Shown here: positions 3,084-25,011 of the stretch, piece after piece
Position numbering within the stretch: the first letter of the stretch is position 1
How the letters are laid out: every line of letters starts with the position of its first letter
Virus record (IMG/VR): IMGVR_UViG_3300014596_000012
Coordinates: 2,713-66,712 of that record
Source of the DNA: a virus
Taxonomy: Duplodnaviria; Caudoviricetes
Direction: 5' to 3' (one strand)
DNA: 64,000 bases
Position numbers and translations under genes: made by a program
Notes under the pieces: generated by a model
Databases searched by the model: none
Told to the model about the DNA's origin: nothing
The model's input: only the letters and a program-made list of their open reading frames with translations

Positions 3084-4169
3084 TTATTCTCGGCCTGTGA
3101 ATTCGTAACCCAGCTGATCCGCACGTGCTTGACACGTTTTCAGGATCGTTGGATAAAACTCAGAATTTCGGAAGATCTCCAGAGCGCTACTTAAAACACT
3201 CATATCTTCAACCTGAGGTATGGTTTTAAGAGCCTGGTTGAAACGAGTTTTCAAATCGTCTTTTTGCGTGTTCTGGGTGCTTTGCTGTTGTGCAGCGGCT
3301 TGACTAGACTTCTGGGCAATAATTCCCCGGATACCTTCACAGGTTTCTTCAAATTTTTGTTGCTGAACGTCATGCAGACTGTTCAATCCACGTTTTGCGC
3401 AGTACTTCTCAATATCAATACCTGCCTGTTGCATGAGATATTGAAGTTCTAAAAACTGATTACCGTCGATACATGCATCAGCAGAACCAGAATTCAGCCA
3501 CCGCTTAAGTGCTATACCATCGGCTTCAGTCAGCGGTCTTGGTTCAATGAATAAACGTGTACGGTCTTTAGTGGCAATGGCTAAGTTTTCATGAGTAAGA
3601 TCTAGAACTGTGGTGAACTCGTATTCAATACCTTCACGCTGCTCGGCCTTCATGCCCACTTTTTCAACTTTCTTTTTTCCGCCATTGTTGGTTTGCACGG
3701 TTTCCATTTTTGAGCGTAAGGTCACAATGATATTGATGCTGGACTGCAACATCGCATCAATAAATTTACGATGACGCGGTGTTACTTCACTCCATGCTCC
3801 CCAGGTGTTACCACGGAACGTTGTGCTACCCAATTTATCTACGATTTCTAGACAGCCACCGACACCCGACCACTCATGGGTAATGCTATCCAGAATTAAA
3901 GTGTCAAAGCCTGCTGCCTCAGCTGCCTTGATTGCATCAATGAATTTTTCAGGTGTATAAGGCGGCTGTAAATTTGCATGTTCAAATGCAACAATATCTT
4001 CATACAGTTCAGCACTACTGTTTTCCGTGTCTGCAACCGCAATACGACCGCCAATACCTTTGGCCAGCATTAAAGCGCCATAGGTTTTACCCGCACCAGT
4101 AGGACCAGAGACAGCTAAGCGTAACTTTGCGTTTTTACGTTGAGCCGGTTTAAAAAATACGTTTGTCAT
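3084..4169 (-). CDS. AAA-family ATPase, Sak4/AAA_24-like phage recombination protein
   Basis: Walker A GPTGAGKT, ADTE, LILDSITHEW, GIEYEF motifs. Confidence 0.8.
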   Translation of the reverse strand: MTNVFFKPAQRKNAKLRLAVSGPTGAGKTYGALMLAKGIGGRIAVADTENSSAELYEDIVAFEHANLQPPYTPEKFIDAIKAAEAAGFDTLILDSITHEWSGVGGCLEIVDKLGSTTFRGNTWGAWSEVTPRHRKFIDAMLQSSINIIVTLRSKMETVQTNNGGKKKVEKVGMKAEQREGIEYEFTTVLDLTHENLAIATKDRTRLFIEPRPLTEADGIALKRWLNSGSADACIDGNQFLELQYLMQQAGIDIEKYCAKRGLNSLHDVQQQKFEETCEGIRGIIAQKSSQAAAQQQSTQNTQKDDLKTRFNQALKTIPQVEDMSVLSSALEIFRNSEFYPTILKTCQARADQLGYEFTGRE

Positions 4170-23379: not shown

Positions 23380-23748
23380 ATGAGCAATATTAATGTTGGC
23401 ATGATTGGCACACCGTTCAAACTTTCTACATTGACCATGGCTATCGCTGTGGCCATTGCGACCCAACCAAAACAGGAAGATGAGCCGCACTGGTTGGATG
23501 CAGAGGAAGGGCCACTGGCCCATCGCTTCGACAACTTCCTGAATAGCTGGACTGACGATACCGAGTTCACTATTGAGCATGAGTCATCTGATGCACTGGA
23601 TTTGTACTGTATGACCGCAGATGGTATTCCGTTCTCATTCCGTCGTATCGATGACCGTTATAGTCTGCTATTCGATAATGAATCAGAAACAATCCAGCAA
23701 GAAACCTTTGAGTTTTTTGTTGAGCAATTAAAATTTTTACCACTTTGA
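23380..23748 (+). CDS. Hypothetical acidic protein
   Basis: 122 aa with N-terminal hydrophobic stretch. Confidence 0.6.
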   Translation: MSNINVGMIGTPFKLSTLTMAIAVAIATQPKQEDEPHWLDAEEGPLAHRFDNFLNSWTDDTEFTIEHESSDALDLYCMTADGIPFSFRRIDDRYSLLFDNESETIQQETFEFFVEQLKFLPL

Positions 23749-24315
23749 ACTGTTTGTATTTTTTTTATACACGTCGTCGTAAACCGGCGACTTACTATAA
23801 ATATATCGGGTGGTGCTGAGCATCATTCGGTAAACAAGCCAAGGTTTGTTTAATCTCCATTGACGGTTCGGAAAGACGAGCACATTGATTGAATCCACAG
23901 CTGATGTGGTGGAGTGATGCAAGTAGCAACTGGGGTTAGCCGCAGGGAAAGCAGAACCACAAGAAATCGTTTGTACCGTGCGCTTGTCAATCAATAAATG
24001 AAGGTTTTCACTGAACCAATTAAGTGATGACAAGCTAGGTAAAAAGCTGCTGACTGTTAGGAATAGACTAGTACCTATATTAAAGAGTGCGGACATGAAA
24101 AACAGTGGTCTACACAATAAAAGGCATTCCAAGCCTGTGAGTAATAGATCAGGATGCTCTTTTTAATATAGGTTTTGAAGAATTGAATGTCTTGGTTTAT
24201 GACGTGAACGGTTGACCCAACAATTGGGGAACGCGCATCCATTAAGCGCTTAATGGTATGAGTCGGAAGGAATACCGCAGAATGATAAACATGACAGCCT
24301 GGAAAGACAGGCAAA

Positions 24316-24363
24316 CCCATCTGATGAGCTTGTGAGACTCAAGCGAAACCGAAAGGTCATGGG
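24316..24363 (+). ncRNA. Type I hammerhead ribozyme
   Basis: CCCAT-CTGATGA-GCTTG(TGAGACT)CAAGC-GAAA-CC(GAAA)GG-TC-ATGGG; complete core with GUC cleavage triplet. Confidence 0.9.
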
Positions 24364-24602
24364 ACAGCGCAACACAATATGAATCGAAAGACATTGTGAG
24401 GACTGCTAGTGAATTTGCGCAAGTAGCTAGACGGCATAGCACGATATTGGTCGATTGTCCTTCAACGGGAATGAACCATAAAAGCCGCTACGGGCACAAG
24501 GGAAGTTGATGACAACTTGGAAAGACAAGTAGAGCGTTGCTATCTCTTAAAACTACTGCCGGTTCCCCTCGATGTTATTCGTAGCATCTTGTGGGAACGA
24601 AT

Positions 24603-24671
24603 CCTTGGCTGCAGGCGGTGCGCGTACCAATCCCTCAGGTACGGTAGGTTCGACTCCTACGCTCAGGGCCA
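24603..24671 (+). ncRNA. Non-canonical tRNA-like element with encoded CCA
   Basis: Acceptor CCTTGGC/GCTCAGG (6 of 7 pairs), T-arm GTAGG-TTCGACT-CCTAC, discriminator G, CCA; 6-bp middle hairpin with 9-nt loop, no variable loop, weak D-arm. Confidence 0.7.
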
Positions 24672-24701
24672 GATAATGCTGTGGGTTCTTAACCCTTTTT
24701 T

Positions 24702-24733
24702 GCCCACCTTTCCCCAAGGGTGGGCTTTTTTTT
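24702..24733 (+). terminator. Intrinsic terminator ending the RNA locus
   Basis: GCCCACC/GGTGGGC followed by 8 T. Confidence 0.85.
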
Positions 24734-24735
24734 AG

Positions 24736-25011
24736 GTGACTATGATGATAATGCTGCATTTAATTTCACGTGCTACAGCAAAAGAATATGGTCTTAAAAA
24801 ATACTTTACCGGAAAACCATGTCGTTATCGGCAGTATGCTGAGAGAAAAACAGGAAATAAGAACTGTACGTGTTTTTTATGTGAAGCCATTCATAGAACG
24901 CAAATGAAGGAATGGCGACAACATAATCCTGGTCATGTTACGAAATGGCGTAAAGAAAAAAGGGTTTCACCACATAACCCAACTTTCATTGAGAAGGAGA
25001 ATCAAAAATGA
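24736..25011 (+). CDS. Hypothetical protein with YFTGKPC Zn module
   Basis: RATAKEYGLKKYFTGKPC...CTCFLC. Confidence 0.65.
   Translation: MTMMIMLHLISRATAKEYGLKKYFTGKPCRYRQYAERKTGNKNCTCFLCEAIHRTQMKEWRQHNPGHVTKWRKEKRVSPHNPTFIEKENQK

Follow-up and report, generated by a model that had tools for sequence, protein, structure and literature searches.

A conserved hammerhead ribozyme that probably makes the 5' end of an uncatalogued knotted RNA in Acinetobacter phages

The DNA analysed here, which we call the window, is a 64,000-nucleotide stretch of a 66.7-kb IMG/VR virus record that is rated complete. It contains a type I hammerhead ribozyme motif, around which the plus strand encodes the large terminase subunit, the portal and major head proteins, and several proteins whose function is unknown. 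The motif lies in the gap that separates the portal and major head protein genes. A first-pass annotation had placed it in a phage late-gene island, and this is borne out, as it sits within the head-gene region with the genes for the portal and the major head protein on either side. We found no credible open reading frame (ORF) in 23750-24735. Instead, this interval holds a non-coding array of RNA elements that ends at an intrinsic terminator (Table 1). At the DNA level the region is closest to Acinetobacter phages and to genomes of Acinetobacter. In one Acinetobacter assembly the stretch is identical across the hammerhead and the folded RNA that follows it (together, the cassette) and lies inside a 256-kb contig. 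Judged from these nearest relatives and from the identical cassette in a bacterial assembly, the host of the phage is almost certainly Acinetobacter.

Table 1. Non-coding features between the portal and major head protein genes (window coordinates).
Feature	Position	Strand	Description
TGAC-type hairpins	23866-23881, 24056-24072, 24297-24312, 24515-24530		TGAC(N), 5-bp stem and GAAAGA loop (GAAUAGA in one); stems differ in sequence
Hairpin before the ribozyme	24297-24312	+	GCCUG-GAAAGA-CAGGC with UGACA before it; 3' end of the preceding RNA module, outside the ribozyme
Type I hammerhead ribozyme	24316-24363	+	consensus core, three stems, stem I open
Stem I	24316-24320 with 24359-24363	+	CCCAU with AUGGG, 5 bp
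CUGAUGA box	24321-24327	+	
Stem-loop II	24328-24344	+	GCUUG/CAAGC, loop UGAGACU
GAAA	24345-24348	+	
Stem III	24348-24357	+	A-CC-GAAA-GG-U, 3 bp
GUC triplet	24356-24358	+	C17 is C24358
Knotted RNA core	24359-24499	+	about 140 nt, begins at the predicted cut site; four nested helices and a pseudoknot
Pseudoknot	24367-24372 with 24415-24420	+	GCGCAA with UUGCGC
P2	24373-24378 with 24393-24398	+	CACAAU with AUUGUG
P3	24406-24410 with 24426-24430	+	CUAGU with GCUAG
P4	24435-24440 with 24487-24492	+	CAUAGC with GCUACG
P5	24448-24451 with 24475-24478	+	UGGU with ACCA
P6	24505-24509 back to 24462-24466	+	GUUGA with UCAAC; read by eye from the alignment
Knotted RNA 3' tail	24500-24530	+	P6 strand, UGACA, then GAAAGA hairpin
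3' hairpin	24515-24530	+	ACUUG-GAAAGA-CAAGU
tRNA-like element	24603-24671	+	separate, optional module; T-arm and CCA
Intrinsic terminator	24702-24733	+	10-bp stem, then run of 8 T; closes the non-coding array

Every element of the hammerhead was confirmed at the position originally read for it. The motif runs CCCAU CUGAUGA GCUUG-UGAGACU-CAAGC GAAA CC-GAAA-GG U C AUGGG. We compared it with the consensus used in PMC3088659 (C3 U4 G5 A6 N7 G8 A9, G12 A13 A14, A15.1-U16.1, H17) and found CUGAUGA at 24321-27, GAA at 24345-47, the A24348-U24357 pair and C24358. The cut that had been predicted after C24358, between 24358 and 24359, agrees with this consensus, in which C24358 is C17. A strict type I descriptor, which required 5 bp in stem I, at least 4 bp in stem II, and the A-U pair with at least 2 bp more in stem III, matched the two strands of the window only once, at the hammerhead, and matched none of 300 dinucleotide-preserving shuffles of the window. 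The hammerhead was also the minimum-energy fold of the 48-mer, of an 81-mer and of a 246-nt context; in it, loops cap stems II and III, and stem I is open.

At gathering score, Rfam 15 gave no match on the window. A permissive scan recovered the core of Hammerhead_HH9 (RF02275) at 21.8 bits (E 0.025), against a gathering score of 52. This match spans model positions 14-59 only, and the long stem I of the model is absent here. The sub-threshold score thus stems from the short stem I and not from a defect of the core. Note that this stem I has no internal loop and no obvious pseudoknot partner. Natural hammerheads need a tertiary contact for fast cutting at cellular Mg2+, and in looking for one between stem I and loop II we found neither a partner bulge nor a pseudoknot for loop II. 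Loop II (UGAGAYU) is nonetheless near-invariant though the stems vary, and this conservation suggests a tertiary contact.

The ribozyme belongs to a family of 17 members, namely the window and 16 relatives that carry the hammerhead. By BLAST against cultured phages, seven Acinetobacter phages have the stretch, either without annotation or under tiny hypothetical ORFs. Pattern scans and genome searches added IMG/VR records (L005-L008, L018 and L026) and metagenome contigs (L049 and L050), and further members came from Acinetobacter genomes (L009-L011, L054 and L055). Among the 16 relatives, the only change in the core is U to C at N7, a position that the consensus leaves free. The stems, by comparison, are re-spelled: stem I changes from CCCAU/AUGGG to CCGAU/AUCGG; stem II from GCUUG/CAAGC to GCUAG/CUAGC or GCUAG/CUGGC; and stem III occurs as ACC-GCAA-GGU, ACACU-UUU-AGUGU, ACCA-ACA-UGGU and ACCUU-UU-AAGGU. 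Within the family, changes on both sides of a pair are found in all three stems. We are confident that 24316-24363 is a real, selected hammerhead. In phage Bhz20 (L002, 2991-3237), GenBank hypothetical proteins of 31 and 43 codons overlie the hammerhead and the RNA downstream; these two ORFs are probably not genes.

Similar hammerheads extend well beyond this family. A scan in which only the core and stem-loop II were fixed returned 36 IMG/VR loci. We aligned 33 distinct phage hammerheads, mostly with the same stem-loop II, and found 97.4% of cells paired, compared with 20-38% when the partners were slid. Seven of the 13 pairs change on both sides, including all five pairs of stem I. One scan used a pattern with a fixed stem II and another a pattern with a fixed stem I; no pattern fixed stem III, or stems I and II together. 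None of the Rfam hammerhead models reached its gathering score in the 13 related loci scanned, eight of which belong to this wider class, and at these thresholds a large group of type I phage hammerheads with short stems is missed. Members of the wider class occur on about 30 environmental phage contigs (among L013-L044, for example L013:5225-5280), with the same stem-loop II (GCUUG-UGAGAYU-CAAGC), a stem I of ACCCA/UGGGU and a variable stem III. Most of them are followed, 10-25 nt downstream, by a ribosome-binding site and ATG. Pattern matches in L012 (Propionibacterium) and L048 were rejected as chance.

In the Acinetobacter phages, the 5' limit of sequence similarity coincides with, or slightly precedes, the start of stem I, and the similarity extends about 165 nt beyond the cut, across a second structured element that we refer to as the knotted RNA. 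A per-sequence helix table shows full complementarity of its helices despite differing sequences. The pseudoknot is spelled GCGCAA/UUGCGC, GAGCGC/GCGCUC, GCGUAC/GUACGC or AUUACGC/GCGUAAU; P3 is CUAGU/GCUAG, CCAAC/GUUGG, CCGAAG/CUUCGG or CCAGAC/GUCUGG; P4 is CAUAGC/GCUAUG, CACGGU/ACCGUG or CACAAC/GUUGUG; and P5 is UGGU/ACCA, UUGAC/GUCAA, UGGC/GCCA or UGGUCG/CGACCA. P2 is a hairpin that varies across the family. For P6, which was read by eye from the alignment in the relatives as in the window, the counterparts are CAGUUU/AAACUG (L007) and CUGUU/AACAG (L018). A distant relative is L026, a different kind of phage contig, where the same architecture is kept with almost every helix re-spelled. L026 keeps the tail as AAUGACA followed by GUACG-GAAAUGA-CGUAC, and a terminator comes just after this hairpin.

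We built a covariance model (R1) from the nested helices only. It found exactly one copy per family locus, at 80-146 bits; the window scored 133 bits and has no second copy. In the R1 alignment with the pseudoknot added, 93.2% of cells were paired, compared with 23-43% for slid partners. Furthermore, 21 of 24 pairs in the R1 alignment change on both sides, and none of 500 shuffles was as good. These pair counts favour the nested helices, because the alignment was fitted to them; the pseudoknot, although absent from the model, still shows six covarying pairs. Rfam 15 has no family in 24364-24600 at E values up to 10, and the gathering-score scan of the window was also empty. The same scan of the 13 related loci returned tRNA genes only, with nothing on the hammerheads or the knotted RNAs. 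We regard the knotted RNA as a well-supported RNA family that is lacking from Rfam 15.

The two elements travel together. Hammerhead and knotted RNA co-occur in all 16 hammerhead-bearing relatives, and searches that used the knotted RNA alone as the query found eight true members, of which seven have a hammerhead directly upstream at the same distance. After the predicted cut, five or six bases of the ribozyme would stay on the RNA, and these vary with stem I (AUGGG, AUCGG, ACCGC). The sequence of this 5' tail is therefore constrained only by the ribozyme. The cassette is found at quite different places in unrelated Acinetobacter phages, with one copy per genome and no sign of multiplication, and a terminator lies 3' of the knotted RNA in phage Alexa, L018, L054 and L026. 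Knotted-RNA matches in genomes of Acinetobacter species were few (5 of 247 by BLAST; 3 of 151 by R1). We considered a host-encoded homologue of the knotted RNA and rejected it: such flanks as could be read belong to arrays of the phage type, and the L011 contig is no more than 223 nt long. Our literature search found no description of a hammerhead joined to a conserved pseudoknotted RNA at a constant spacing, nor of that RNA itself. The eighth member recovered through the knotted RNA, a copy of the L026 type (L056:233-363, minus strand), is without the hammerhead, the 5' pseudoknot strand and half of P2. It directly abuts the stop codon of a protein gene and seems to be truncated, not a ribozyme-free version.

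In phages Bhz20 and JeffCo, a conserved promoter-like element (TTGCG-N17-TGnTAyAAT; L002:2961-2992 and L003:2962-2993) lies about 12 nt upstream of stem I. Both copies failed a two-hexamer scan because the -35 hexamer matches at only 3 of 6 positions. The element lies within an inverted repeat, and the arms of this repeat are spelled differently in each phage (GGGGUCC/GGCCCC in one, GGUGCUCAUU/AAUGAGCACC in the other). The element could be a promoter with an operator, or it could be an RNA hairpin and perhaps no promoter. If it is a promoter, the ribozyme in these phages would remove little but itself, and its purpose would then lie in the position or chemistry of the 5' end. With this element, or in other loci with the terminator 3' of the knotted RNA, some members have the look of self-contained small RNA genes.

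Probably, the self-cleaving hammerhead serves as the 5'-end maker of an uncatalogued knotted phage RNA. On the nascent transcript, the hammerhead would fold and cut itself after C24358. The upstream piece would keep the ribozyme and end in a 2',3'-cyclic phosphate; the downstream piece would carry a 5'-hydroxyl at A24359, measure roughly 170 nt and be closed by UGACA and the GAAAGA hairpin. The hammerhead would act as a built-in 5'-end maker, akin to RNase P for the tRNA genes that often stand beside the cassette, and ribozyme and knotted RNA would form one mobile cassette that is inserted at different places in unrelated Acinetobacter phages. To judge by the arrangement alone, what the cut does for the RNA would be to define the position or the chemistry of its 5' end. 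As a guess, the knotted RNA binds a host or phage protein tied to tRNA or RNA metabolism.

We also put forward a more far-reaching reading, though tentatively and as something we rather doubt. The cassette may represent an undescribed class of phage small RNA genes that need a ribozyme-made 5'-hydroxyl. Its RNA would be a swappable module among tRNAs, tRNA mimics and other folded RNAs, each closed by UGACA and a GAAAGA hairpin, and would play an active part as a decoy, inhibitor or catalyst. It might, for example, be a decoy or inhibitor of a host RNA-targeting defence or of an RNA-processing enzyme, or else a second catalytic RNA.

The hammerhead might instead be a general cutter that severs the long late transcript, or a selfish element carried along with a mobile cassette, and its cut would bring the RNA downstream no specific benefit. 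Intergenic hammerheads of phages were already reported for PaP3 and Bcep176 (Perreault et al. 2011, PMC3088659), and their roles remain mostly open (PMC8782182). On the roughly 30 other phage contigs, a hammerhead of the same type stands just before a ribosome-binding site and start codon, where it can act only on mRNA, and the widely varying location of the cassette among unrelated phages would also suit such an element. Against this stands the fixed-distance fusion to the knotted RNA, which is kept across deep divergence, L026 included. In the window, moreover, the terminator parts the array from the next genes. In phage Alexa the cassette stands alone between convergent genes, adjoining the integrase gene and with its own terminator. 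Nor does the cassette, with its one copy per genome, show signs of having multiplied. We consider this explanation unlikely and retain the knotted RNA as the probable beneficiary of the cut.

The knotted RNA is not the only structured element in the array. We rejected the idea that 23800-24733 encodes a single ornate RNA of 0.9 kb, since BLAST of the gap against 15 related loci recovered its blocks in differing orders and combinations. The block 24047-24191 lies 3' of the knotted RNA in L008, part of 23886-23969 lies 3' of it in L009, and the tRNA-like block is found elsewhere in L005. The 1-kb gap is a mosaic of modules that phages have shuffled, often beside tRNA genes, and not one large RNA. 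Four TGAC-type hairpins lie at the borders of these modules, whose order differs in related phages. The hairpins may serve different modules alike as signals for processing or for protection of the 3' end. The one that directly precedes the ribozyme in the window has no counterpart upstream of the hammerhead in Bhz20, JeffCo, L018 or L026.

In JeffCo (Arg), L005 (Cys), and L054 and L055 (both Arg) the cassette has genuine tRNA genes as neighbours, and on a wastewater contig a tRNA follows immediately after the 23866 hairpin. The window itself carries a tRNA-like element. The T-arm of this element is perfect and its CCA is encoded; the acceptor stem is of 7 bp and includes one mismatch, and the middle arm has 6 bp and a loop of 9 nt. 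ARAGORN called neither a tRNA nor a tmRNA in the window, and Rfam matched the element only as tRNA-Sec, at 16 bits. We rejected two further identities for it. It is not an att-site copy of a host tRNA, because the host-type genome G002 has a single occurrence, and it is not part of a tmRNA, as there was no ARAGORN call and no ALAA-type tag before a stop in the three forward frames of 23750-24740. The counterpart in L026 stands immediately before the hammerhead and has a similar middle arm (CUUACC-9 nt-GGUAAG), a T-arm and CCA.

The first-pass annotation had proposed that the cut frees a 3' RNA carrying this tRNA-like element. On such a reading the hammerhead releases a long 3' RNA, of which 24603-24671 is the functional part, and corresponds in its own class to the theta ribozymes, which are minimal HDV-like ribozymes that cut within 5 nt of a phage tRNA end (Kienbeck et al. 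2024, PMC10879173). The element does belong to the same transcript and precedes the terminator. In about 9 of the first 15 family loci the cassette is flanked by tRNA or tRNA-like modules, a tRNA-like 3' half precedes the hammerhead in L026, and the wider-class hammerhead of L016 sits within a tRNA array. A looser association of the cassette with tRNA arrays is real. The constant partner of the ribozyme, however, is the knotted RNA. The tRNA-like element starts 245 nt past the cut, with a complete conserved RNA and its hairpin intervening; we saw no such element in Alexa, Bhz20, L018 or L054, all of which keep hammerhead and knotted RNA; and the order of modules differs among phages. The proposed parallel fails on the defining feature of theta ribozymes, their cut within 5 nt of a tRNA end (PMC10879173). 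We give this reading a low probability, and the knotted RNA remains the product that we favour.

There is nevertheless a resemblance to theta ribozymes at a more general level. In both, as we propose here for the hammerhead, a small cis-acting ribozyme would make an end of a stable phage RNA without a host nuclease, and both tend to occur in tRNA-rich regions. The differences are that the ribozyme here is a hammerhead and not HDV-like (no HDV-family match was found at E up to 10), that it would make a 5' end and not a 3' end, and that the RNA served is not a tRNA. The nearest tRNA-like element is 245 nt from the cut, and the hosts are Acinetobacter, compared with the gut Bacteroidota or Bacillota of theta ribozymes.

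Contigs assembled from RNA libraries touch on the predicted cut. In a pig-gut metatranscriptome, one contig of 2058 nt spans 23603-24355 and stops 3 nt short of the cut site. This is a weak hint of cleavage, as it comes from one study and one contig end and DNA carry-over is possible. A second run of the same study gave a contig of 24413-24674, which ends 3 nt after the CCA of the tRNA-like element. In a wastewater run that is probably DNA, a contig bridges the cut site. The contigs of run X6, probably DNA, come from relatives with other module orders; run X1 gave no matching contig, and in run X8 the cut site is not covered. The 5' RNA of about 560 nt envisaged earlier does not emerge as a defined product: the upstream modules are reordered in other phages, and the RNA-library contig enters from the upstream gene.

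Cut ends could also be rejoined. The ends left by hammerhead cleavage are exactly those used by RtcB-type ligases, and the ribozyme could supply a 5'-hydroxyl for a host ligase such as RtcB, after which the knotted RNA would be circularised or joined to another RNA. The apparent role of the ribozyme in Bhz20 and JeffCo, where it seems to serve only a change of the 5' end, would fit this scheme. We nevertheless think it very improbable, since no second self-cleaving motif was found on the 3' side, no gene for RtcB, an RNA ligase or a CCA-adding enzyme was found in the phage record, and the contig of 24413-24674 runs through the 3' hairpin with no joint reported. Least probable of all is a chance or dead motif, which would be in keeping with scores below every Rfam gathering threshold and a short stem III, but not with 0 matches in 300 shuffles, compensating changes in three stems and a core left untouched except at N7.

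Since hammerheads in phage intergenic regions have been known since 2011, the ribozyme as such is of a known kind. It shares its core, three helices, open stem I and location in a non-coding phage stretch with the bacterial, prophage and phage type I hammerheads described before (PMC3088659; Rfam clan CL00010). Unlike in these, stem I is only 5 bp and stem-loop II is near-invariant across a large class of phages; a further difference, within the literature that we searched, is the fixed fusion to a conserved pseudoknotted RNA. Such a passenger, which is backed by covariation and starts at the cut site, makes the purpose of a phage hammerhead testable. To our knowledge, thousands of bacterial and phage hammerheads have been recorded, and a clear biological purpose is established for almost none. 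The cassette is present in cultured phages with named hosts (Alexa, Bhz20 and JeffCo).

Two other kinds of RNA invite comparison. GOLLD and ROOL are large, ornate, phage-linked non-coding RNAs that are structured and pseudoknotted and often lie beside tRNA genes. The knotted RNA is much smaller than these, at about 140-170 nt, and has its own 5' ribozyme. In engineered constructs that express guide RNAs between ribozymes, almost the whole hammerhead is lost on cutting, and the RNA that follows has a defined first base bearing a 5'-hydroxyl. Compared with such ribozyme-flanked guide RNA and tRNA-array expression systems, the phage cassette is natural and has a ribozyme on the 5' side only.

Several additional pairings and motifs were considered and set aside. 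RNAalifold suggested a ribozyme switch in which CCAUCUGA, within the hammerhead, pairs with UUGGAYGG downstream. About half of the members have an A-C mismatch at the centre of this pairing that is not compensated, and the ribozyme is also transcribed about 100 nt earlier; we treat the pairing as incidental. A 5' tail pairing from the same program (GG-CAG/CUGCC) is broken without compensation in Bhz20 and JeffCo and overlaps P3. We also rejected a candidate second hammerhead at CUGAUGACA, near the 3' end, where C3 is U in both the window and Alexa and neither GAAA nor a stem III follows.

Two minor observations concern further elements. L042 carries two hammerheads about 290 nt apart on its minus strand (2929-2984 and 3213-3270). 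In the downstream one, the stem I strands (ACCUA and UCAAG) are unpaired, and the 3' strand is identical to that of its neighbour; it looks like a recombinant or inactive copy. In the window, the module at 23884-24002, which follows the first GAAAGA hairpin and gives no match to R1, is 95-97% identical in several related contigs (L005, L007 and L010). It is the deepest contig piece of the wastewater run (depth 61), where its flanks differ and include a tRNA 5' half, and it is probably another stable RNA.
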